Shown: piece by piece, positions 16,243-45,542 of the stretch
Position numbering within the stretch: the stretch's first letter is position 1
Layout: every line of letters begins with the position of its first letter
Sequence record: KT184313.1
DNA: 64,000 bases
Origin: Enterobacteria phage KhF1
Strand: one strand, 5' to 3'
The notes under the pieces: model-generated
What the model was told of the DNA's origin: nothing
The model's input: the letters and a program-made list of their open reading frames with translations, nothing else
Database searches by the model: none
Made by a program: the position numbers and the translations under genes

Positions 16243-16278
16243 CAAAAAAGGCTCCCGTAAAAAGGAGCCTTAAATTTT
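16243..16278. terminator. bidirectional rho-independent terminator between convergent genes
   Basis: GGCTCC-cgtaaaaa-GGAGCC hairpin flanked by A-run and T-run. Confidence 0.7.
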
Positions 16279-16648
16279 ATCTTTCAGTATTCTTTGTGTT
16301 CTTTTCAGTAATAGCTTGGAGGGCTGATACTGATTGAGCCAGATTGTTCACACTGTCAGAGAATTTATCAAGAGTTTTGGTAAGTTTTGCGTTTTCACCC
16401 TTAACATTCTCTAACTGAACTTTCTGGTTCTCCATCCCTAGCTGAATCAGTCTCATGTCAGACTGTAAATCACGAATAGCTGAATAGTTACTTTTGGAAT
16501 AATTATCTAGCTGCTGTAACTTTGTTGTGACAGACACTTCTTGTTTACCACTTGAAACCTGCATCGTGGTATACATCCCAATAACACTAAAAATACCAAC
16601 TACAATTGCACCAATATTATTTTTAAAAGCTTCCTCTAGCCACTTCAT
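16277..16648 (-). CDS. membrane-anchored coiled-coil protein (possible i-spanin-like or tail-fibre accessory)
   Basis: N-terminal TM segment IGAIVVGIFSVIGMYTT then long coiled-coil-like region. Confidence 0.4.
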   Translation of the reverse strand: MKWLEEAFKNNIGAIVVGIFSVIGMYTTMQVSSGKQEVSVTTKLQQLDNYSKSNYSAIRDLQSDMRLIQLGMENQKVQLENVKGENAKLTKTLDKFSDSVNNLAQSVSALQAITEKNTKNTER

Positions 16649-16843
16649 TTATTTCTCCCCCTTAAAAGCTTTTTCTAAGTTATCTACGAACTCATCATCA
16701 ATAGGTGTGTCTGTTTTACTCGCAAGGTATCTTGCAAGCTTAAAGAACACTTTCTCAATCATGTATTCACTTAGAAGGGATAAAATGAGTTTCCAGAAGA
16801 AGCTACCTAGATTTTTTAGAAGAATTGCTAGGATTGTAGGCAT
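16649..16843 (-). CDS. small hydrophobic protein (possible holin-like)
   Basis: 64 aa with hydrophobic N-terminal half. Confidence 0.35.
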   Translation of the reverse strand: MPTILAILLKNLGSFFWKLILSLLSEYMIEKVFFKLARYLASKTDTPIDDEFVDNLEKAFKGEK

Positions 16844-16922: not shown

Positions 16923-19307
16923 TTAAGCAGTTCTTACCCAAGCCATTAACTTGTAGAACTGGTTAGTAACACTAAATGCTGAACCAGAACCTGTACCACC
17001 AGTGTTACCACTAACTGTATGAGTGTGAGCACCGATACCTACAGAGTGGGTGTGAGCACCAGTGTTACTTGTAGTACCAGACCATGTGTGTGTATGGTTA
17101 CCAGTCGTGTTAGTGTTAGGGAATTTGTTATCAGTTCTGTCAAGCCAGTCAAGAGTTCTTGTCTTATTGTTACCAATAGTGGTATATCCGTACTGAGCAT
17201 CACCACCATTAACCAATAGCAGACCTAAGTGGTGAGCGTGGTTACCAGCAGCACTTGTTGTACCACTTACAGAGTGAGTATGACCACCAGTGCTATTAGT
17301 GTTCTTCGTACCATAATCAAAAGAGGAAGTGGTAGCAGAGAAACTATGGGTGTGTGATGGTAAGTTACCAACAGCTAACGTCACAGAATCTGAACCACCT
17401 GTTGTAGCAACATCTGAACCGTTTGCTGCTGCAATTCTGATAGTTCTACCAACACCATTGTTCAGGTACGTCCAAGTTAGACCAGGAAGTGCTGTATTAG
17501 GGTTAACGTTGCTGTTAAACCACGTTACAATACCTACTGGATAGATTTTATTAAGGTCTGTAGAGTCACTAATTGCTTCTGCAATCTTCTGGTCAGTCTC
17601 TGCTTTAGTGTATGCACCGATATCTGAAGGGGTTGGTTTAAAATCAGTTGTGTAAAGCTGTGCCTCTCCGGCATAGTCACCATTTTTGTCATAGGCATAG
17701 GTAAATGTTGCCAGTCCATTTGAGCCATACACAAAAGAGATTCCTCTTGCATGTGCAGCAGTCTTATTAGAGTGAGCAACATGAATTGCCAATTCTCTCA
17801 GTCCACTAGCAACCTGATTGTTTCTGACAAAACCTGAATATCCAAGATTAAAACCTGAAGGGTTTTCAAGGTTATCTACAGAAACAGTCATTAAGGATTG
17901 GTTTAATAACTGAGTTTTAACAAAATATCTAGCATCTAAGTTAGACCAATCAGAAGGTTGAACTTGACCAGTAATGGTTAGGTTCTTATTAGCCTTAATC
18001 GCTGAAGGCATAAGAGTAATTTGAGTCCCAGAGTAGCTGTTGTTTAATGCCACATCAGTAGAATTTGTGCCACCCACACCTACCCACCACCTAGATACAT
18101 TCTGGGTATCAACACCACGGATATATTGTGGCTGCCCCTGTGTTAAGTTTCTTAATACTACGCCTTCATTATTTGATACAATAGTTTGCACATTCACAAA
18201 TGTGTTAGCAACATTAAGCTTAGGTAGGTTACTCAAAGTTGCTGCCGGAATATATCTAGAGTCAATATTAGTCCAATCCGAAGGTTGAACTTGACCAGTG
18301 ATTCTGAAGTTCTGGTTGACTGAGATATAGCCATTATCAAGTCTGATATTTGAACCGTGTACATAGTTGTGTAGCAGCACAGAGGCTGTGTTATCCCCGT
18401 TCCCTACATACCACCTGTTAGTGTTCTGAGAGTCAACACCCTGAATGAATAGTGAGCTAGTTGTTGCATTTTTCAACCTTAAAGCAGCACTGTCACTGAT
18501 AATAAGTAGGTTTCTGCTAAACGTGTTAGTGCCAGTGAAATTGTTATTCGCAGCTAACTGTGCAAATCTCTGATTAGCAACTGTCTGAGTAAAGTATCTA
18601 GCATCTAAGTTAGAGAAATCTGAAGGTTGAACTTGACCAGTGATTGCTAAAGACTTATTAACAGAGACATTACTTGCAACAGTCAAGGCTGAGTTGTATT
18701 TGTTATTGTACAGCTTTACTTCGTCAGAGCCATTACTACCAATACCAACCCACCATCTAGCCGAACCATCTAGGTTTACACCTTCGATATATTGTGCATT
18801 ATTTGCATTTTGGTTTCTAAGGCGAAGTAAGCTAGCATCACCTTGAATATTTTGAGTTCCAGAGAATGTGTTTGTGATAGCTAGTCTTGCATACCTTGCA
18901 TCATTCTCTTCATTAGTTCTCATCCCAAGTTCATTAGGGCTTGGCTTATTCAGAGTATGATAAACAGTTGCCGACCTTGAAGTGTCTGCAATAGTCAGTT
19001 TAAGGCCATTTGCGTTGATTTTAAAAGTCTTTAAAACATCCCCAATATTAATCTCAGAAGAGCCTGTTGGGTTAAATACTACCTTACCACCATAAAGTAA
19101 CTTAACAATCCCTAAGTCACCCGCCATAGTGCTGCCAGCAATCTGAACAAATCTTTCAAGTTTAAAAGATGCTAAGAAATCTTGATAGGTCATTCGACGG
19201 TCTTCATCGCCAAGCATTTCAGGTCTCTTTTTAACTCTGACATGAAGAAGGTCATCTGAACGGATTGTATCGATTGAGTTTAATTCACTCAACTTGTAAT
19301 CTGCCAT
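16923..19307 (-). CDS. tail fibre protein with internal repeats and C-terminal His-x-His repeats
   Basis: Four copies of ...ITGQVQPSDWSNLDARYF...; C-terminal HTHSVSG/NHTHTWSG/AHTHSVGIGAHTHTVSG repeats. Confidence 0.75.
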   Translation of the reverse strand: MADYKLSELNSIDTIRSDDLLHVRVKKRPEMLGDEDRRMTYQDFLASFKLERFVQIAGSTMAGDLGIVKLLYGGKVVFNPTGSSEINIGDVLKTFKINANGLKLTIADTSRSATVYHTLNKPSPNELGMRTNEENDARYARLAITNTFSGTQNIQGDASLLRLRNQNANNAQYIEGVNLDGSARWWVGIGSNGSDEVKLYNNKYNSALTVASNVSVNKSLAITGQVQPSDFSNLDARYFTQTVANQRFAQLAANNNFTGTNTFSRNLLIISDSAALRLKNATTSSLFIQGVDSQNTNRWYVGNGDNTASVLLHNYVHGSNIRLDNGYISVNQNFRITGQVQPSDWTNIDSRYIPAATLSNLPKLNVANTFVNVQTIVSNNEGVVLRNLTQGQPQYIRGVDTQNVSRWWVGVGGTNSTDVALNNSYSGTQITLMPSAIKANKNLTITGQVQPSDWSNLDARYFVKTQLLNQSLMTVSVDNLENPSGFNLGYSGFVRNNQVASGLRELAIHVAHSNKTAAHARGISFVYGSNGLATFTYAYDKNGDYAGEAQLYTTDFKPTPSDIGAYTKAETDQKIAEAISDSTDLNKIYPVGIVTWFNSNVNPNTALPGLTWTYLNNGVGRTIRIAAANGSDVATTGGSDSVTLAVGNLPSHTHSFSATTSSFDYGTKNTNSTGGHTHSVSGTTSAAGNHAHHLGLLLVNGGDAQYGYTTIGNNKTRTLDWLDRTDNKFPNTNTTGNHTHTWSGTTSNTGAHTHSVGIGAHTHTVSGNTGGTGSGSAFSVTNQFYKLMAWVRTA

Positions 19308-19321
19308 TATAAATTTTCCTC

Positions 19322-19345
19322 TTAAAAGGGGCTATCAAGCCCCTG
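19322..19345 (-). terminator. rho-independent terminator between the two fibre genes
   Basis: GGGGCT-tgat-AGCCCC hairpin followed by TTTT on minus strand. Confidence 0.55.
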
Positions 19346-19353
19346 TAAAGAAA

Positions 19354-20541
19354 TTAAGCTGTTCTCTGCCATACATACAGTACGAAGGATGGCTGCTCAA
19401 TGTTAAAAGCTTGTCCACCACCAACACTGTTAGTGTTCCCGCTATGCGTATGCTCAGAAGAAGAAACTGTTACAGTACCATTGTGTGTATGTGAACCAAT
19501 ACCAACCGTATGGCTGTGAGCACCAATACCAACCGTGTGGTTGTGGTTACCAGTCGTGTTAGTGGTCACACTGAAAGAGTGGGTGTGTGAACCAGCAACT
19601 TCACAGACAGCATCTGCTGAGTACCATGATTGGTCATTCCTTGAAGACCAAACCATTGCAGGTCTTTCCGATAGACCACCACCTGATTCATAGGTCAATC
19701 TGTGGTTATGAGCACCAGCAGAACTTGTTGACCCACTACCAACATGGTTATGGTTACCAGTCGTGTTAGTGGTCTTAGTTCCATAGTCAAAAGAGTTAGT
19801 AGTCTTAGTTCCATAATCAAAAGTTGAAATTGACACCGTTGCATTATGAGTATGACCACCACCACTAAGAGACACAGAGTGTGAGTGTTGTGGCATGTTA
19901 TTAACTGACAAAGTGACAGTTGAAGCACCAAATACAGAGCCTGCTGGTCTTGTATCAGAGTCATAACCAACCAATGCTCTACCTTTTGAAACTAACTCCC
20001 AAGTTCCTCCACAAATTAAATACGTAGAAGGGTTTGCAGAGTTCATGGAAAGATGGATAGTACCTACTGGATAAGAAGCCTGAACAGCCTTGTACAAGTT
20101 ATTTACTGCTCTTGCTGTAGCATACTTATCTGCATCTTCGTTATAAAGGTTAGATGTTGTCCAGTTCTGAACATTACTCAATCCTACCTGTGCCTTAGTT
20201 GTATTATGTGGGTTGCTCTTGTCCTGAATATGCTGTTGAACAAGATTATTAACCTCTTCTGAAGACATAATCTGTAGATTTGCTCTTGCCTGAGCTACAT
20301 TAACAATATCTGATAAGTTATTTGCAGCAACTAACTGAAGAGCATTAATAACGTTATCTAAACCAATTTGTGTTTTAGTCACACCATGAGGGTTATTTCT
20401 TAGGCTTGAGTGTGGAGCAAGTAATTGCTCAAGAGTACATCTCTTATCCTCAATACCCTGCTTAAGATGGAAGATATCACTAAGGTCAATTGGTAAGGCT
20501 GCTTGAGGCAAGGCACTAATTTGAATTTCACCTACCGCCAT
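19354..20541 (-). CDS. tail fibre protein (second, HxH-repeat type)
   Basis: HxH repeats (GSHTHSFS, GNHNHTVGIGAHSHTVGIGSHTHNG); C-terminus ...YVWQRTA resembles ...MAWVRTA of the 794-aa fibre. Confidence 0.7.
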   Translation of the reverse strand: MAVGEIQISALPQAALPIDLSDIFHLKQGIEDKRCTLEQLLAPHSSLRNNPHGVTKTQIGLDNVINALQLVAANNLSDIVNVAQARANLQIMSSEEVNNLVQQHIQDKSNPHNTTKAQVGLSNVQNWTTSNLYNEDADKYATARAVNNLYKAVQASYPVGTIHLSMNSANPSTYLICGGTWELVSKGRALVGYDSDTRPAGSVFGASTVTLSVNNMPQHSHSVSLSGGGHTHNATVSISTFDYGTKTTNSFDYGTKTTNTTGNHNHVGSGSTSSAGAHNHRLTYESGGGLSERPAMVWSSRNDQSWYSADAVCEVAGSHTHSFSVTTNTTGNHNHTVGIGAHSHTVGIGSHTHNGTVTVSSSEHTHSGNTNSVGGGQAFNIEQPSFVLYVWQRTA

Positions 20542-20543
20542 TA

Positions 20544-28565
<8,022 letters not shown>

Positions 28566-40267: not shown

Positions 40268-40343
40268 TGGAGAATCCGAAGGGACTCGAACCCTTATAAA
40301 CCTGTTTTGCAGACAGGCACATAGCCATTTCTGTCACGGATTC
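40268..40343 (-). tRNA. tRNA-Cys (anticodon GCA)
   Basis: Acceptor GAATCCG/CGGATTC, T-arm AAGGG-TTCGAGT-CCCTT, anticodon loop CTGCAAA, CCA encoded. Confidence 0.7.
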
Positions 40344-40347
40344 AAAT

Positions 40348-40440
40348 TGGAGGAAGATACCAGACTTGAACTGGTACACCGATTTCTCAGCTACTGGCAG
40401 TTTAGCAAACTGCTCCCTTACCTTTTAGGGTTAATCTTCC
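40348..40440 (-). tRNA. tRNA-Ser (anticodon GCT), long variable arm
   Basis: T-arm ACCAG-TTCAAGT-CTGGT, anticodon loop TTGCTAA, about 90 nt. Confidence 0.6.
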
Positions 40441-40441
40441 A

Positions 40442-41176
40442 TTATTTCTGTAATGCGTTCTTCATTTCTGGTGTTGCAATAGTGTCAATCACACCAGTTT
40501 TACAAGCATCATCAAACCAGTCTGGTAAGATACCTGCTAAGAACCCATTGATATTCGTTTTAAGGTACTCTGCAATAAGGGCAGCTTCTTCTTCAATCAT
40601 CTGCACAACTTCATCTGCATAAGCTGTAATCTTTGAGATACCTTCATTAATCTTACTGACAGCTTGGTTAGCTAAATCAGAAACAGTATCAAGACCCTTA
40701 TCAATAGCATCTTGTAAGTCACTTAACACACCATTAACACTATCTAGTGTACTGTTCATCATGTCAATAGCTTTTTGACCATACTCTGTAGCAACACCCA
40801 TAATACCACTGAATGGTGTACAACCAACTTGTTCTCCTGCTGCACCCATAACATTGGAGTATCCCTTTGCTACCTGCATACGTGATGAAAACTCATCAAT
40901 AGACTTTTGACCGTAGTCTGTTAGGGTCTTAGTAGTTGCTGTAGTGCTTGTAAGGCTTGTTGTAAAGCTGTTTAGAAGGACTGTTGTAAGTCCAGCAGCA
41001 ACAAGTTTCTCCTTCATTGTAGGGTCTGTTACAGAGCTAATAGAGCTTACAAGTGATGTAGAAGCAGCTACGGTTCCACCGAGAACTGCTGCACCAGTAA
41101 TAAGTGGGTTAGAGAACCCTTTACCGGTTTTTAAGAGATTAAAAATCTCCTTACCTTGTTCTGTCATCTCTTTCAT
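40442..41176 (-). CDS. hypothetical Ala/Thr/Ser-rich protein inside tRNA cluster
   Basis: ORF track; start moved to internal ATG at 41176 because the annotated start would overlap tRNA-Phe. Confidence 0.45.
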   Translation of the reverse strand: MKEMTEQGKEIFNLLKTGKGFSNPLITGAAVLGGTVAASTSLVSSISSVTDPTMKEKLVAAGLTTVLLNSFTTSLTSTTATTKTLTDYGQKSIDEFSSRMQVAKGYSNVMGAAGEQVGCTPFSGIMGVATEYGQKAIDMMNSTLDSVNGVLSDLQDAIDKGLDTVSDLANQAVSKINEGISKITAYADEVVQMIEEEAALIAEYLKTNINGFLAGILPDWFDDACKTGVIDTIATPEMKNALQK

Positions 41177-41192
41177 TAAGCACCTTTGAAAT

Positions 41193-41269
41193 TGGTAGTC
41201 CAGTGGGATTTGAACCCTCTTCTCATGTTTTTCAGACACGCGCTTTAACCATATAAGCTACTTGGACTA
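41193..41269 (-). tRNA. tRNA-Phe (anticodon GAA)
   Basis: Acceptor pairing, GGGTTCAAATCCC T-arm, anticodon loop CTGAAAA. Confidence 0.6.
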
Positions 41270-41274
41270 TAAAT

Positions 41275-41350
41275 TGGGGTGACCTACGGGATTTGAACCC
41301 GTATAGACCATGTTCACAGCATGGGTCATTACCATTTATGATAAGGCCAC
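41275..41350 (-). tRNA. tRNA-His (anticodon GTG)
   Basis: Acceptor GTGGCCT/AGGTCAC, anticodon stem CCATG/CATGG, loop CTGTGAA. Confidence 0.7.
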
Positions 41351-41381
41351 ATTTAAGGACTCTCGTAAGAATCCTTAGAAG

Positions 41382-41457
41382 TGGCAGCGGCATAAGGATT
41401 TGAACCTTAATAGGACAGCTTCAGAGACTGTTGCATTGCCAGTTATGCTATACCGCT
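41382..41457 (-). tRNA. tRNA-Gln (anticodon CTG)
   Basis: Acceptor AGCGGTA/TGCCGCT, T-loop TTCAAAT, anticodon loop CTCTGAA. Confidence 0.6.
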
Positions 41458-41462
41458 AAATT

Positions 41463-41534
41463 TGGTACTCCATATCGGATTCGAACCGATACATAACACA
41501 GATTTTAAGTCTGGCCTCTCTGCCAATTGGAGTA
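41463..41534 (-). tRNA. tRNA, short and atypical, isotype undetermined (anticodon possibly TAA)
   Basis: Acceptor ACTCCAA/TGGAGT, T-arm ATCGG-TTCGAAT-CCGAT; anticodon arm does not parse cleanly. Confidence 0.45.
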
Positions 41535-41543
41535 ATGGAGCAT

Positions 41544-41618
41544 TGGCGGGGGATGTTGGAATTGAACCAACTTCTTCGATTTCAAAGACCGAGGTTTTAA
41601 CCTTGTAAACTAATCCCC
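41544..41618 (-). tRNA. tRNA-Gln (anticodon TTG), tentative
   Basis: T-arm GTTGG-TTCAATT-CCAAC, anticodon loop CTTTGAA; acceptor pairing imperfect. Confidence 0.5.
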
Positions 41619-41627
41619 TTTAAATCT

Positions 41628-42185
41628 TTACTTTCTCAGTGGATGAATAAAGAATGCCAACATAACTCTTTCCCTTGAGAATGCTCTTTCTTCTGGGACA
41701 ACACTTTTTAGTTTCCATCCAATATAAATTCTCCAGTAAAACTGTTTACCAAAGACTTTAATTGATGGGATAAAGGCGAATAATCCCCAAGCATTACTGT
41801 TCCACATTAGGAGATAACCAGTCTGATTATCTTCAGGGTCAGAACTTACGTTGATATTACCTTTCCACTTAGTAACATCTTTTACATCTCTTCCTAATAC
41901 ATGGTAAGAGAAGTTATAAGCTTTGTTTCTCCAGAGCCATCCGACTCTTTGCATGTAGACGCCTAGTTTACCAATCCATCTAATATTAGCCCATCTTTTA
42001 ACGTGACCTTCATCACCATCAATTGGGTTGTCATATGTCTCCATCCATCTGAACCCGAAAGGTAAGTGTCCTTTCTTCTCACTGTAGAATGGAACTACAA
42101 AAGGTGCTAAGATAACTGCTAAGATTGCTGCAAATGGCTCTAACAAAGCTAAGAAAATCCATGAAACATATTTTAAGTATCTCAT
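41628..42185 (-). CDS. integral membrane protein
   Basis: N-terminal hydrophobic helices WIFLALLEPFAAILAVILAPFVVPF; Trp-rich. Confidence 0.5.
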   Translation of the reverse strand: MRYLKYVSWIFLALLEPFAAILAVILAPFVVPFYSEKKGHLPFGFRWMETYDNPIDGDEGHVKRWANIRWIGKLGVYMQRVGWLWRNKAYNFSYHVLGRDVKDVTKWKGNINVSSDPEDNQTGYLLMWNSNAWGLFAFIPSIKVFGKQFYWRIYIGWKLKSVVPEERAFSRERVMLAFFIHPLRK

Positions 42186-42424
42186 TGTCTAACCCTCGTA
42201 AGGAGGTAAGCATTATTATTTGTTTCTGAGCTTTCTGGTAACATTGTCTCAAAATTGACGCTTTTAAGTTGTCTTCCACCAAAGCAATGACCAATAAATC
42301 TTTCTACTTTTATTGGGTCGCATTCCCATCCGACTTTCAAGAAAATGTGGGTATCTATAGTGGGAACCCTTACAAACTCAATACTATTGGGATTTTCATG
42401 TTCAACGACGATTAATGTTTGCAT
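42182..42424 (-). CDS. hypothetical protein
   Basis: ORF track; ATGA overlap with downstream membrane-protein gene. Confidence 0.45.
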   Translation of the reverse strand: MQTLIVVEHENPNSIEFVRVPTIDTHIFLKVGWECDPIKVERFIGHCFGGRQLKSVNFETMLPESSETNNNAYLLTRVRQ

Positions 42425-42441
42425 AAATTCCTCTTGCTTAT

Positions 42442-42517
42442 CTGGCGCAGGATAAGGGATTCGAACCCCTATTAACAGCTTCGTAGACTGTTGCTCTATC
42501 CATTTGAACTAATCCTG
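42442..42517 (-). tRNA. tRNA-Arg (anticodon ACG)
   Basis: Acceptor GCAGGAT/ATCCTGC, T-arm GGGGTTCGAATCCC, anticodon loop CTACGAA. Confidence 0.7.
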
Positions 42518-42522
42518 CAAAA

Positions 42523-42600
42523 TTGGTGTTCCAAGACGGATTCGAACCGTCACTAGTACAAGGTTTGAGCTTGCATCCTCTGCCAATTGGGATACTGGAA
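42523..42600 (-). tRNA. tRNA with anticodon CAA (Leu-type anticodon on a short-variable-arm body)
   Basis: Acceptor GTTCCAG/TTGGAAC, T-arm GACGG-TTCGAAT-CCGTC, anticodon loop CTCAAAC. Confidence 0.5.
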
Positions 42601-42601
42601 C

Positions 42602-42677
42602 ATGGTACTCACTAAAGGACTTGAACCTTTTTCTTCATCTTGTAAGGGTGATGTTTTACCATATAAACTAAGCGAGT
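42602..42677 (-). tRNA. tRNA-Val (anticodon TAC)
   Basis: Acceptor TACTCGC/GTGAGTA, T-loop TTCAAGT, anticodon loop CTTACAA. Confidence 0.55.
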
Positions 42678-42681
42678 ATGA

Positions 42682-42768
42682 AAGAGGTCTGGAGTTGTGC
42701 CGCTAACTCAACTCCGTGGAATTTGTTACGGTCTTCAGTTGACTCAAAGCGGTCTTTCACTTGACCTC
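42682..42768 (-). ncRNA. tRNA-sized structured element, not a canonical tRNA
   Basis: 7-bp terminal pairing AGAGGTC/GACCTCT encloses a 7-bp hairpin GGAGTTG/CAACTCC; no TTCGA T-loop. Confidence 0.35.
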
Positions 42769-42772
42769 TGAA

Positions 42773-42848
42773 TTGGTGCTCCCACAAGGATTCGAACCCT
42801 GATAAGTTGCTTACAAGGCAACCGTAATAGCCAATTATACGATAGGAG
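42773..42848 (-). tRNA. tRNA-Thr (anticodon TGT)
   Basis: Acceptor GCTCCTA/TGGGAGC, anticodon stem GTTGC/GCAAC, loop CTTGTAA. Confidence 0.7.
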
Positions 42849-42855
42849 CATTAAT

Positions 42856-42931
42856 TTGGAGCATCCAGAGGGAATCGAACCCTCAACCTCAGTTTGGAAG
42901 ACTGTAATTTTCCCGTTTAAACTATGGATGC
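42856..42931 (-). tRNA. tRNA-Gly (anticodon TCC)
   Basis: Acceptor GCATCCA/TGGATGC, T-loop TTCGATT, anticodon loop CTTCCAA. Confidence 0.65.
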
Positions 42932-42936
42932 ACTAA

Positions 42937-43012
42937 TTGGTGGAGTCACTGAGAATTGAACTCAGTTCCCAAGTTTGCAAAACTCGAATTTTAACCATAT
43001 AAACTATGACCC
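42937..43012 (-). tRNA. tRNA-Ala (anticodon TGC)
   Basis: Acceptor GGGGTCA/TGACTCC (G3-T70 wobble), anticodon loop TTTGCAA. Confidence 0.65.
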
Positions 43013-43018
43013 CAATGT

Positions 43019-43095
43019 TTGGTACAGGTGGAGGGAATTGAACCCATCGTCTTACTGATTAAGAGTCAGCCGCATAACCATTTTGCTACACCTGC
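43019..43095 (-). tRNA. tRNA-Lys (anticodon CTT)
   Basis: Acceptor GCAGGTG/CACCTGT, anticodon stem GCTGA/TCAGT, loop CTCTTAA. Confidence 0.55.
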
Positions 43096-43101
43096 ATTAA
43101 T

Positions 43102-43180
43102 TTGGTGGGAGACAAGGGATTCGAACCCTCAAACACCAACTTCTAAGGATGGTAGGTTTACCAATTACCGTCAATCTCCC
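43102..43180 (-). tRNA. tRNA with anticodon TAG (Leu-type anticodon on a short-variable-arm body), tentative
   Basis: Acceptor GGGAGAT/GTCTCCC, T-arm GAGGG-TTCGAAT-CCCTT, anticodon loop CTTAGAA. Confidence 0.45.
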
Positions 43181-43438
43181 ATTAAATCTTTTTAGAGAAC
43201 TTCTAAGAACCTAAGCAACAAGGTTCCACAACAAGCTGTAATAACCTTAGAAGCCCTCTAAAAAGACCTAAAAAGGTCTTTGCATAGTCTTGTTTAATCC
43301 GGTGACTAGAACCTTTGGAGAGCTTGATATTATCTCTTCTCCGTGACACCTACTAGGTGCTTTACTGTGCGTGTACGACAATACACGAGGGATACCAAAG
43401 CAACATCCGAATGAAGCTTGGCTTTAAAATCTTATTAG

Positions 43439-43526
43439 GCGGTAAGTAAAGGAGTCGAACCCTCACCGTATCTCTACAGTGGCAACAGTTTTCAAGACTG
43501 TTTGGCTGCCATTAGCCGCTACCTAC
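43439..43526 (-). tRNA. tRNA-Ser (anticodon TGA), long variable arm
   Basis: Acceptor GGTAGGT/ACTTACC, anticodon stem ACAGT/ACTGT, loop CTTGAAA, about 88 nt. Confidence 0.6.
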
Positions 43527-43539
43527 CCCTAATAAGACT

Positions 43540-43622
43540 TTGGCATGGGACGGAGGAGTTGAACCCCTTTGAAACGGTTTTGGAGGCCGTTGCTCATGCC
43601 TTAGAGTCTTAACATCGTCCCA
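43540..43622 (-). tRNA. tRNA, atypical; possibly tRNA-Trp (anticodon CCA) with extended D region
   Basis: Acceptor GTGGGAC/GTCCCAT, T-loop TTCAACT, candidate anticodon loop CTCCAAA; about 8 extra nt in D region. Confidence 0.45.
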
Positions 43623-43774
43623 CACTATAATTCGAAGCTTACCCTATTATCTCAACACTGTAAAGCCCCTTCTCAGATTATTTACATGTTCTGGAAAACA
43701 TGAGATACAGACCACCTCCCTACAGGAAGACCCGCTTAGGTCGTATAAGTAATCTGCTAACTATTTGGCACACC

Positions 43775-43842
43775 CTACAGGATTCGAACCTGTAACTAAC
43801 GATTTAGAAGACCGTTGCTCTATCCAATTGAACTAAGGGTGC
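43775..43842 (-). tRNA. tRNA-Arg (anticodon TCT)
   Basis: Acceptor GCACCCT/AGGGTGT, T-arm ACAGG-TTCGAAT-CCTGT, anticodon loop CTTCTAA. Confidence 0.65.
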
Positions 43843-44088
43843 ATTAATCTTTAAAGACTCTCTTAGAAAGCCCTTAAAGATGCCCACCTTATTAATCATA
43901 CCGTGGGCGAGTACGCCAAATTCTTTGATGAGGGATTGGAAGACCTCACTGGTGTTTAGCCTATCAAGCTACTGCCAGAAAAACATTGTCGTTTGCATTT
44001 ATTTTAAATTTGCAAAATAGACGCTACGCAACGAAAACTAAGGTTACTATAAAGTGGTCACATCTCAATGTCAACAACTTTATTGAAA

Positions 44089-44164
44089 TTGGTACTGGTA
44101 GGTGGAATCGAACCACCGATGTTCCCTTATCAGGGGAGTGTTATAACCTTCTTAACTATACCAG
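44089..44164 (-). tRNA. tRNA-Ile (anticodon GAT)
   Basis: Acceptor GCTGGTA/TACCAGT, T-arm GGTGG-TTCGATT-CCACC, anticodon loop CTGATAA. Confidence 0.7.
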
Positions 44165-44165
44165 C

Positions 44166-44243
44166 TTGGAGGTTCAGATGGGAATCGAACCCACATTCAT
44201 AGGGCTTATGAGACCCTTGCATTACCTTATCTGCGACTGAACC
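44166..44243 (-). tRNA. tRNA-Met (anticodon CAT), copy 1
   Basis: Acceptor GGTTCAG/CTGAACC, anticodon stem AGGGT/GCCCT, loop CTCATAA. Confidence 0.65.
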
Positions 44244-44246
44244 ATT

Positions 44247-44322
44247 TTGGTAGAAGTGGAGGGATTCGAACCCATCGCCTGTCAGATTAAAAGTCTGCCG
44301 CATCACCATTCTGCTACACTTC
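44247..44322 (-). tRNA. tRNA-Lys (anticodon TTT)
   Basis: Acceptor GGAAGTG/CACTTCT, T-loop TTCGAAT, anticodon loop CTTTTAA. Confidence 0.6.
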
Positions 44323-44325
44323 CAT

Positions 44326-44469
44326 TAAATTATCTTTGTAGATAAGCTACCCAGACTTGCTTAAGGTCTGTAGCGATGTGCCTTGTTGGGTTTAAATCTA
44401 GAATTTACCCTTTCACCCTTTGTGGTCGCATACTCACAGGTAAGCTTAATAACTTATCTACAAAGATAA
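44326..44469. repeat. 19-bp perfect inverted repeat pair (AATTATCTTTGTAGATAAG) enclosing about 106 nt
   Basis: Arms at about 44326-44344 and 44451-44469 are exact reverse complements. Confidence 0.6.
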
Positions 44470-44470
44470 T

Positions 44471-44602
44471 TACCAGACCGTTGTTTATCATCTTAAGTGC
44501 TACCATTACACCAACTCGACATCTGCCGAGTGAAGGAATCGAACCTTCGCCTTTTCTTTACCGAGAAATAGATTGTTTAAGTTTTGCTGTAAACGGTCTT
44601 CT
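44471..44602 (-). ncRNA. tRNA-like domain in permuted (Y RNA-like / YrlA-like) arrangement inside a long closing stem
   Basis: On minus strand: T-arm GAAGG-TTCGATT-CCTTC, acceptor-like 7-bp helix ACTCGGC/GTCGAGT capped by a 4-nt loop, D-arm GTGT-AATGGTA-GCAC, CTTAA/TTAAG helix, outer stem AGACCGTT/AACGGTCT. Confidence 0.45.
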
Positions 44603-44615
44603 GTAAATTTGTTGA

Positions 44616-44691
44616 GCCAGACCAAGTTTTAAATTTTTCAAAATTAAATTGGCTTGAAATTTTCATACGTTCTTGCTGTATTTGGTCTTCT
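44616..44691 (-). repeat. spacer hairpin element, family member 2 (CCAGACCAA ... TTGGTCTTCTG)
   Basis: Same conserved arms and TTGCTGTA block as 44471..44602 but AT-rich interior. Confidence 0.5.
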
Positions 44692-44752
44692 GCTCCTTTA
44701 AAGGATACTCGTAAGAACCCTTTAAGGGAGGGGCTAAATAGCCCTCTCAAAA

Positions 44753-44829
44753 TTGGCGGCTACGATGAGACTTGAACTCACATCATCTCCCGTGACAGGG
44801 GAGTATTTTCTCCAGTTAAACTACATAGC
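44753..44829 (-). tRNA. tRNA-Asp (anticodon GTC)
   Basis: Acceptor GGCTATG/CGTAGCC, T-loop TTCAAGT, anticodon stem CTCCC/GGGAG, loop CTGTCAC. Confidence 0.7.
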
Positions 44830-44834
44830 CTTTA

Positions 44835-44922
44835 TTGGTGTGCCGTGTAGGAGTCGAACCTACCGAGTCTCAATGACAAGGGATTTACAGTCCCCACCGC
44901 TACCATCTACGGGATAACGACA
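44835..44922 (-). tRNA. tRNA-Tyr (anticodon GTA), long variable arm
   Basis: Acceptor GTGTCGT/ACGGCAC, T-arm GTAGG-TTCGACT-CCTAC, anticodon loop CTGTAAA. Confidence 0.65.
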
Positions 44923-44930
44923 CATTTAAT

Positions 44931-45007
44931 TTGGCGGTTAGTCAGGGATTCGAACCCTGTGCCATTCGCTTAACAGGCGACCGCACATACCTTATGTGCT
45001 TCCTAAC
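44931..45007 (-). tRNA. tRNA-Asn (anticodon GTT)
   Basis: T-arm CAGGG-TTCGAAT-CCCTG, anticodon loop CTGTTAA. Confidence 0.65.
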
Positions 45008-45020
45008 CATGTTTAGTATT

Positions 45021-45085
45021 ACCAGACCGTATATTTCAATTTTTTCCGCTAAAAATTTAATAAATATTGCTGTAAACGGTCTTCT
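45021..45085 (-). repeat. spacer hairpin element, family member 3 (CCAGACCGT ... AACGGTCTTCTG)
   Basis: Conserved arms and TTGCTGTAAACGGTCTTCTGTAAA block. Confidence 0.5.
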
Positions 45086-45091
45086 GTAAAT

Positions 45092-45167
45092 TTGGAGGCG
45101 GGTGCAGGAGTCGAACCTGCCGATACCATGCTAATGAGACATGTGAGACGCCCTTTCTCTATACCCG
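45092..45167 (-). tRNA. tRNA with anticodon CAT, copy 2 (initiator, elongator Met or Ile2 undetermined)
   Basis: T-arm GCAGG-TTCGACT-CCTGC, anticodon stem CATGT/GCATG, loop CTCATTA. Confidence 0.6.
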
Positions 45168-45179
45168 CAATTCTTAATG

Positions 45180-45251
45180 ACCAGACCAAATATCTTCTTT
45201 GTCCGATTAACTTTCAGATGAGTAGATTAAGTTTGCTGTAATTGGTCTTCT
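45180..45251 (-). repeat. spacer hairpin element, family member 4 (CCAGACCAA ... TTGGTCTTCTG)
   Basis: Conserved arms and TTGCTGTAATTGGTCTTCTG block. Confidence 0.5.
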
Positions 45252-45258
45252 GTCAAAA

Positions 45259-45336
45259 CTGGCGTTCCAGAAGGGATTTGAACCCTCAAATATCCACTTT
45301 GAAAGAGTGGTGACTTTACCATTTTGTCTACTGGAA
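45259..45336 (-). tRNA. tRNA-Glu (anticodon TTC)
   Basis: Acceptor GTTCCAG/CTGGAAC, anticodon stem CCACT/AGTGG, loop CTTTCAA. Confidence 0.7.
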
Positions 45337-45343
45337 CATTAAT

Positions 45344-45423
45344 TTGGTCTCCGTTGAAGGATTTGAACCCTCGACCCCTTGCTCCCAAAGCAAGTGCTGC
45401 TAAACCAAACTGAGCTAAACGGA
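45344..45423 (-). tRNA. tRNA-Pro (anticodon TGG)
   Basis: Acceptor CTCCGTT/AACGGAG, anticodon stem CTTGC/GCAAG, loop TTTGGGA. Confidence 0.7.
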
Positions 45424-45542
45424 GATAAACTTTTCAAACTCTATGTAACCACTTTAACATTATTTTTTAGTGATTGTCAAGAACTTTTTTAAAATATTTT
45501 TCAGTATCTTAGAAAAGCTCTCATTTCGTTTCTATGTAGAAC

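Follow-up and report, generated by a model that had tools for sequence, protein, structure and literature searches.

Two adjacent minus-strand genes in a 64,000-nucleotide (nt) stretch of DNA from Enterobacteria phage KhF1 (record KT184313.1; this whole stretch is called the window below) very probably encode the baseplate fibers of a Felix O1-like myophage, with each fiber ending in a receptor-binding tip of the phage T4 gp37 type. This paired architecture is already known from phages Bas63 (2025), Sf14 (2025), and VpaE1 (2015). An earlier note, made from the letters of the window alone, had singled out the two genes as tail fibers with histidine-rich repeats and a common C-terminal ending. 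Both open reading frames (ORFs) are intact and adjacent, and occupy exactly these positions:

16923..19307, minus strand: long tail fiber gene, 794 amino acids (aa); ORF in PHROG 4277; counterpart of Bas63 gp27 and Sf14 gp53
19354..20541, minus strand: short tail fiber gene, 395 aa; ORF in PHROG 2097 with Pfam Gp10_C; counterpart of Bas63 gp26 and Sf14 gp52

Family matches bear out the identification of both products as tail fibers. The long fiber matches PHROG 4277 'tail fiber protein' from end to end (aa 1-794 against profile positions 1-780 of 780) and contains three stretches of the Pfam domain gp37_trimer (PF20744; 259.3 bits, cut-off 21.7), while the short fiber is covered from aa 1 to 394 by PHROG 2097 (profile positions 205-600 of 644) and carries Gp10_C (PF21939; 68.8 bits, cut-off 27). 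Homologues of the short fiber (354-453 aa, 74 of them full-length) occur throughout Ounavirinae-type phages, and the long fiber has 120 homologues at 79-100% identity. The lengths of both ORFs equal those of homologues in hundreds of contigs.

The C-terminal parts of both fibers carry the clusters of His-x-His (HxH) motifs that had been described from the letters: six in the long fiber (at residues 652, 676, 690 [HAHH], 738, 752, and 761) and nine in the short fiber (219, 230, 264, 278, 319, 333, 342, 351, and 364). No count this high occurred when either whole protein was shuffled 10,000 times (mean 0.5, maximum 4 for the long fiber; mean 1.4, maximum 7 for the short fiber), nor in 10,000 shuffles of either His-rich C-terminal segment (mean 1.0, maximum 5 for the long fiber; mean 1.7, maximum 8 for the short fiber). 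Nearly every tip histidine lies inside an HxH motif (12 of 13 in the long fiber and 18 of 18 in the short fiber). Aligning the two C-terminal regions, a check proposed in the earlier note, showed that the last ~230 residues of the long fiber and ~260 of the short fiber match over 282 columns (33% identity, E 4e-23 in composition-adjusted BLASTP). The common endings WVRTA (long) and WQRTA (short) are the final residues of this alignment, and their similarity therefore reflects homology rather than composition alone. Consistent with this, AWVRTA is kept in all 120 long-fiber homologues, and W391 and R393 are invariant among 50 aligned short-fiber homologues.

Homology to the T4 gp37 tip structure 2XGF, the HxH positions, and the variation among homologues delimit the following putative parts of the two tips:

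16926..17624, minus strand: long-fiber gp37-type tip (aa 562-794) with collar, needle, head, and C-terminal strand ending WVRTA, by homology to 2XGF
17019-17354, minus strand: long-fiber needle strands with 3+3 HxH (aa 652-763), from HxH positions
17097-17228, minus strand: small long-fiber head (about aa 694-737), part of the tip
19357..20136, minus strand: short-fiber gp37-type tip (aa 136-395) with C-terminal strand ending WQRTA, by homology to 2XGF
About aa 146-215 of the short fiber, minus strand: short-fiber collar, part of the tip
19444-19887, minus strand: short-fiber needle with 4+5 HxH (aa 219-366), from HxH positions
19588-19701, minus strand: hypervariable short-fiber head (aa 281-318), least conserved across 74 homologues

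In phmmer searches of PDB sequences, long-fiber residues 650-773 and short-fiber residues 146-367 matched 2XGF (T4 gp37 residues 785-1026) at E 1.3e-20 and 1e-26, respectively, and BLASTP against full-length T4 gp37 gave E 1e-24 for the long fiber (gp37 residues 757-994) and 2.5e-28 for the short fiber. A three-way alignment of the T4 gp37 tip with both fibers shares a YP(V/I)G collar motif, an FDYGTK box, the HxH positions, VGIGAH(T/S)HTV, GNT, and AF. The endings AF...WVRTA and AF...WQRTA align with AFNYIVRLA of T4 gp37, with (V/Q)R(T/L)A common to all three, and at the sequence level the terminal strand appears to be conserved as in the gp37 tip. On the descending and ascending strands, HxH motifs fall at aligned positions (3+4 in T4, 3+3 in the long fiber, and 4+5 in the short fiber), the short-fiber set corresponding to the seven of T4 plus one extra per strand. 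Strands were assigned by alignment, since splitting the motifs at their largest gap misassigned many homologues and was dropped. Across 75 short-fiber sequences (the query and its 74 homologues), a longer descending needle segment goes with a longer ascending one (r = 0.84), as an antiparallel hairpin needle requires, which supports such a needle.

The collars are related in a similar way. That of the short fiber also matches the C-terminal domain of T4 gp10 (2FKK, E 2e-5), and that of the long fiber (about residues 586-650) scores 23.3 against Gp10_C, below the cut-off, and aligns with the short-fiber collar and with gp37 residues 757-860. The earlier note had likened the fibers to the tips of both the long and the short fibers of T4. 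The likeness to the long fiber (gp37) is supported by the 2XGF homology, but that to the short fiber (gp12) is not: neither fiber matched T4 gp12 at E ≤ 1 in PDB sequence searches. Because it matches gp37 and not gp12, the short fiber is best read, from its sequence, as a truncated gp37-type fiber and not as a gp12 homologue.

Within the descending needle strand of the short fiber, the FDYGTKTTN box is tandemly duplicated (aa 239-259; 19766-19828), and T4 gp37 carries a degenerate version of this duplication (DLGTKTTSSFDYGTKGTN). The arrangement recalls the His-box duplications that, in work by Tetart in 1996, reportedly widened the host range of T4.

The homology, motif statistics, repeat structure, gene order, and variation map observed in the window can be combined with published work on relatives into a model of how the fibers may act, in which trimer state, metal binding, attachment sites, and binding order would follow Bas63, Sf14, and T4. 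Fiber proteins are present in virions of Bas63, Sf14, and VpaE1 as baseplate-attached trimers, as established by cryo-electron microscopy (cryo-EM) and mass spectrometry (PMC12609058, PMC11821841, PMC4690856), and by analogy each fiber protein of this phage would form a homotrimer attached to the baseplate. The short fiber would be anchored through its N-terminus to wedge protein 2 and the long fiber to a trimer of a 100-aa platform protein, and homology with Bas63 suggests that the long fiber attaches through its first 135 residues:

18903..19307, minus strand: long-fiber N-terminal region (aa 1-135), putative baseplate-binding domain, 90-99% conserved across 120 homologues

The C-terminal ~230-260 residues would form the T4 gp37-type receptor-binding tip. 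From the collar, the chain may descend as one of the six strands of a needle, form a small head at the far end, and return to end at the collar with WQRTA or WVRTA. With all three chains contributing, each HxH motif would surround a single metal ion on the axis of the needle with six histidines (in T4 this ion is Fe2+), giving putative metal sites, up to nine in the short fiber and six in the long fiber, that may stiffen the needle. The variable head would most likely contact lipopolysaccharide (LPS) sugars. The long-fiber shaft would consist of repeated beta domains, three of them recognizably repeated in sequence, with conserved linkers between them. During infection, the long fibers would probably detach from the sheath and scan the cell, and the short fibers would bind afterwards.

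The earlier note had reported four internal repeats of about 70 aa in the long fiber, probably by counting four linker motifs. The shaft instead contains three longer units of 99-114 aa, followed by a fourth copy of the linker only:

17937..18902, minus strand: shaft repeats R1-R3, tandem beta-domain units, from segment BLASTP, profile, and Pfam PF20744
18606-18902, minus strand: repeat unit R1 (aa 136-234, 99 aa)
18264-18605, minus strand: repeat unit R2 (aa 235-348, 114 aa)
17937-18263, minus strand: repeat unit R3 (aa 349-457, 109 aa)

Self-BLASTP of the entire long fiber returned the identity match only, and the repeats were seen by segment comparison and profile. Compared segment against segment, the three units share 38-44% pairwise identity (E 3e-18 to 7e-24), and a unit profile built from 39 homologues finds each of them at E 1e-40 to 1e-50. 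At the fourth place, residues 458-475, this profile finds only its first ~15 residues (the DARYF linker). PF20744 matches all three units, and R2 matches a C-terminal fragment of T7 gp17 (4A0T, residues 48-117; E 1.2e-6), which corresponds, following the description in the Sf14 paper, to the gp17 'pyramid' domain. The linkers, of the form ITGQVQPSD..D(A/S)RY, are encoded by 70-nt direct DNA repeats of 77-84% identity (17922-17991, 18249-18318, and 18591-18660).

Variation across homologues is distributed differently in the two fibers. In the short fiber, the head is least conserved (aa 281-320; identity 0.23-0.33 among the 74 homologues), while conservation is seen at the N-terminus, in the collar, and over the final 15 residues. 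The 120 closest long-fiber homologues, a set biased to close relatives with the same tip allele, vary mainly in the cores of R1 (141-220) and R2 (281-340), with identities of 0.41-0.56 in R1/R2 and 0.82-1.0 in the tip; a minority of long-fiber homologues, in VpaE1_ev78 and JH2, have a different tip head. The same pattern appears against phage KhF2 at the nucleotide level. Over most of the downstream two-fifths of the long-fiber gene, between R3 and the point where the tip head begins, identity is 100%; it dips to 83-93% within the distal tip (17007-17186) and drops to ~45% in two cassette cores (18687-18866 and 18327-18506) separated by a 92% island at the linker. The long-fiber tips of this phage and KhF2 are near-identical, and their short fibers share about 98% identity. 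Repeated linkers thus flank ~45%-identical cassettes in a gene that is otherwise 80-100% identical, which suggests that cassettes are exchanged through the linkers. The R1/R2 pattern therefore reads as cassette-type mosaicism, in agreement with the report of the Bas63 authors and sharpening it slightly.

Some observations weigh against the reading of both proteins as baseplate fibers with gp37-type tips. AlphaFold2 monomer models had predicted local distance difference test (pLDDT) scores of 65 for the short fiber and 42 for the long fiber, and a Foldseek search of the PDB with the short-fiber model found nothing at E ≤ 0.001, its top, non-significant matches being gp10 homologues and C24. Low monomer confidence is expected for obligate intertwined trimers; since these predictions are uninformative, fold-level support comes from homology and published work on relatives. 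The order of long fiber before short fiber is probable by analogy with T4 and the Bas63 cryo-EM classes, although the short fiber is not a gp12 homologue. Finally, the concentration of long-fiber variation in R1/R2 rather than the tip among close relatives would not be predicted if recognition were purely tip-mediated.

Several alternative explanations can be set against this reading. The HxH clusters and shared ending could be chance effects of a composition rich in His, Thr, Ser, and Gly, or one of the ORFs could be a decaying pseudogene. The tips are indeed of low complexity, with abundant G, T, S, H, and N, but HxH counts above all shuffles, even within the His-rich segments, and the strong composition-adjusted match between the fibers make chance exceedingly improbable, and homologue-equal lengths, the end-to-end PHROG match of the long fiber, and coverage of the short fiber throughout its own length make a pseudogene equally improbable. 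A recent tandem duplication within the lineage, raised in the earlier note, would account for two adjacent genes on one strand with a common tip architecture and C-terminal motif, the shared tip reflecting that event. This is very unlikely: tip identity is just 33%, and the two tips score lower against each other (84 bits in BLASTP) than against the T4 gp37 tip (87 bits for the long fiber and 97 bits for the short fiber). The short-fiber tip scores 139 bits against the short-fiber tip of Erwinia phage phiEa21-4, and its orthologues in Erwinia, Hafnia, Pectobacterium, and Yersinia phages place the split before the origin of this phage group. At the DNA level, the fiber genes resemble each other only in tracts that encode motifs (the longest 90 nt at 74%), and their N-terminal and shaft parts show no sequence relationship. 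Since neither tip resembles its neighbor more closely than it resembles T4 gp37, the two tips are better read as old, separate lineages of one fold.

The remaining alternatives concern what the fibers recognize. Each could bind a different LPS structure (e.g., outer core versus inner core or O-antigen), with either able to start infection and host range thereby broadened. Each fiber has a head of its own on a complete tip of the gp37 type, and both heads are variable, the short-fiber head within its homologues and the long-fiber tip through the swapped alleles of VpaE1_ev78 and JH2; the Sf14 authors suggest that the two fibers may bind different receptors (PMC11821841). However, the short tail fibers (STFs) of Bas63 are fully occupied and retracted while occupancy of its long tail fibers (LTFs) ranges from 0 to 6, which its authors interpret as a T4-like division of labor (PMC12609058), and the different attachment points and lengths (430 Å versus 630 Å) suggest different triggering roles. 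We thus regard two independent receptors as possible, though on the unlikely side. Somewhat doubtful, too, is the possibility that the R1 and R2 beta domains are surfaces for host recognition or defense evasion that are swapped as cassettes, so that LTF specificity is not set by the tip alone. The divergence of their cores from KhF2 despite a 98% identical backbone, complete identity from R3 to the tip head (90-100% past that point), and the linker island would fit this possibility, as would the lower identity of R1/R2 than of the tip among the 120 homologues and the linker DNA repeats, which offer recombination anchors; the Bas63 authors name variable host recognition and defense escape as possibilities (PMC12609058). 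Their first option, however, is relaxed constraint on solvent-exposed beta domains, which could explain the same pattern (PMC12609058); moreover, the homologue set is skewed to relatives sharing a tip allele. That R1 and R2 are exchangeable specificity cassettes, bounded by DNA-repeated linkers as possible recombination anchors, is a tentative and rather improbable proposal. If it were true, phages with near-identical backbones and identical tips (here versus KhF2) would differ in the glycan or defense system engaged by the side of the fiber, and the shaft, alongside the gp37-type tip, would help to determine host range in the genus.

The two fiber genes are separated by a short spacer with a putative regulatory element:

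19308-19353 (46 nt), minus strand: spacer from the short-fiber stop to the long-fiber ribosome-binding site (RBS) and start; holds a GC hairpin
19328..19343, minus strand: hairpin GGGGCT-tgat-AGCCCC followed by TTTT, from sequence and fold prediction

The hairpin has a minimum free energy of -16.8 kcal/mol with a z-score of only -1.7, and a consensus terminator scan did not call it because only four T residues follow the stem. In the KhF2 record, a Rho-independent terminator is annotated at the equivalent site. The upstream genes (wedge 1, platform, and short fiber) overlap or abut (an ATGA overlap and a 2-nt gap), and the long-fiber gene has its own RBS after the hairpin. The hairpin, with this modest z-score, might lower expression of the long fiber relative to the short fiber, which would fit the partial LTF occupancy in Bas63.

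By its sequence, the window derives from a Felix O1-like (Felixounavirus) Escherichia coli myophage. The 3.6-kb fiber region matches 244 phage records in nucleotide comparison, including the Felixounavirus genomes LF82P3, XTG1, and KhF3 at 97.4-97.6% identity, and the long fiber has 100% identity with the product annotated 'tail fibers protein' in Enterobacteria phage KhF1. The closest relatives of the fibers and of their surroundings differ. The 24-kb backbone around the fibers (window positions 8000-32000) is nearest to KhF2 (98%), whereas the fiber region itself (16923-20541) is nearest to LF82P3, XTG1, and KhF3 (97.5%), and the history of the fiber module therefore differs from that of the remaining genome. 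The window also encodes a thymidylate synthase and dihydrofolate reductase pair and a baseplate module. On the minus strand at 40268-45424 lie 26 clustered tRNA genes, among them tRNA-His(GUG), as is typical for Felix O1-like phages.

The minus-strand module runs from a 489-aa wedge 2 protein through a 285-aa wedge 1 protein and a 100-aa protein to the short and long fibers. These ORF sizes (489/285/100/395/794 aa) follow the Ounavirinae order of wedge 2, wedge 1, platform, STF, and LTF, which is also that of Bas63 gp23-gp27:

21706-23175, minus strand: baseplate wedge 2, baseplate J-like (489 aa); the 489-aa gene is annotated as baseplate assembly protein in KhF2
20846-21703, minus strand: baseplate wedge 1 (285 aa); match to PHROG 4017 'baseplate protein'
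20544..20846, minus strand: 100-aa protein, putative long-fiber platform (Bas63 gp25 counterpart); full-length match to PHROG 4141

Only position and size suggest that the 100-aa protein is the long-fiber platform. The central spike protein (207 aa; 23594-24217, minus strand) has a single His-Thr-His at residues 188-190, the same positions as the iron-binding HxH in the Bas63 puncturing apparatus, and would thus be a third HxH metal-site protein of the module.

Two small minus-strand ORFs lie directly downstream of the long fiber, within 16277-16843. One encodes 64 aa (PHROG 402, unknown function), and the other encodes 123 aa (PHROG 4038) with a weak Rz-like spanin match, a hydrophobic N-terminal segment, and an apparent long coiled coil. 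In the Sf14 gene table, gp55, two positions past the long fiber, is annotated 'holin or lysozyme' with 'Yes' in the last column (PMC11821841). By gene numbering alone, gp55 would correspond to the 123-aa ORF, and the 'Yes' may indicate detection in virions. The two ORFs may encode either lysis proteins or fiber-assembly helpers. At 16248-16271, between the 123-aa ORF and the convergent plus-strand thymidylate synthase gene, lies a strong hairpin that resembles a bidirectional terminator (AAGGCTCC...GGAGCCTT with T runs).

Typing of Salmonella, biocontrol in food, and therapy against E. coli all make use of Felix O1-type phages, whose fibers decide which strains are killed. A gp37-type tip on both fibers shows engineers where specificity could be swapped, as already published for Bas63, Sf14, and VpaE1. 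The window contributes only a further combination of alleles, together with a clear case of mosaicism by cassettes in the long-fiber shaft.

Among known systems, the closest is Bas63 (Escherichia phage JohannRWettstein), a phage of the same genus whose cryo-EM structure was published in Science Advances in 2025. [quoted passage not shown] The STF sits on domain D2 of wedge 2A, and the N-terminal domain of the LTF on the gp9-like platform gp25, which in turn sits on D2 of wedge 1; between zero and six LTFs are retracted (PMC12609058). The Bas63 LTF has beta-domain repeats like those of T4 gp34; sequence variability is found not only in the tips but, unexpectedly, also in these repeats, and fiber density was too weak for side-chain modeling (PMC12609058). 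The PhageMaP preprint yielded no usable gene-essentiality data on the Bas63 fibers, nor did a search for papers on phages KhF1-3 yield anything of use. The window shares with Bas63 the gene order, the gp37-like HxH tips on both fibers, six long-fiber HxH motifs with an extra-His motif near the head (HAHH at 690-693 here; H692, H693, and H695 in Bas63), and a long-fiber shaft of repeated beta domains with helical linkers that is variable in tips and beta repeats. The two differ in the number of short-fiber HxH motifs (nine here, with four descending and five ascending, versus seven reported for Bas63) and in the shaft, for which five structural beta domains were reported in Bas63 and three are detectable as sequence repeats here. 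Nine is the commonest short-fiber HxH count among the 74 homologues. These comparisons follow the published description of Bas63 rather than percent identity to its sequences.

Shigella phage Sf14 (Communications Biology, 2025) belongs to another genus of the same subfamily, Mooglevirus, and its gp52 and gp53 are 391 and 792 aa long (PMC11821841), close to the 395 and 794 aa found here. It likewise has two retracted fibers of 430 and 630 Å, the longer with T7 gp17-like and gp37-like domains and the shorter with a domain like the C-terminus of gp10, and no separate chaperone or adhesin subunit was reported. According to its authors, Sf14 lacks homologues of Mu-type chaperones (PMC11821841). They name both fibers 'long tail fibers' and place a C24-like domain mid-fiber, unlike the Bas63 interpretation and the hairpin topology used here. 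In VpaE1, both fiber proteins (gp74 and gp75) were described in 2015 as homologous to the T4 gp37 adhesin, with LPS core carbohydrate as the receptor (PMC4690856).

Compared with the T4 gp37 tip, both fibers appear to share the collar, HxH needle strands, small head, and returning chain (ending ...VRLA in T4 and ...VRTA or ...QRTA here), with FDYGTK and VGIGAHTHTV conserved and 35-55% identity over 108-252 aa. They differ in HxH number (seven in T4 versus six and nine here) and in their heads, which are unrelated in sequence. Whereas T4 gp37 (1026 aa) is the distal half of a fiber of four proteins (gp34, gp35, gp36, and gp37) and needs the chaperones gp38 and gp57A, a single polypeptide would here reach from baseplate to tip. 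The T4 gp10 C-terminal domain is matched by the short-fiber collar at the scores given above, but gp10 is a baseplate wedge protein rather than a fiber. T4 gp12 also has a His-x-His metal site, which binds zinc, but no sequence match to it appeared at E ≤ 1, and the fiber we call short is so by comparison only, with a truncated gp37-type build. Finally, T7 gp17 (4A0T/PF20744) has a single such domain before a beta-sandwich tip, whereas in this long fiber the domain is triplicated in the shaft and followed by a tip of the gp37 type.

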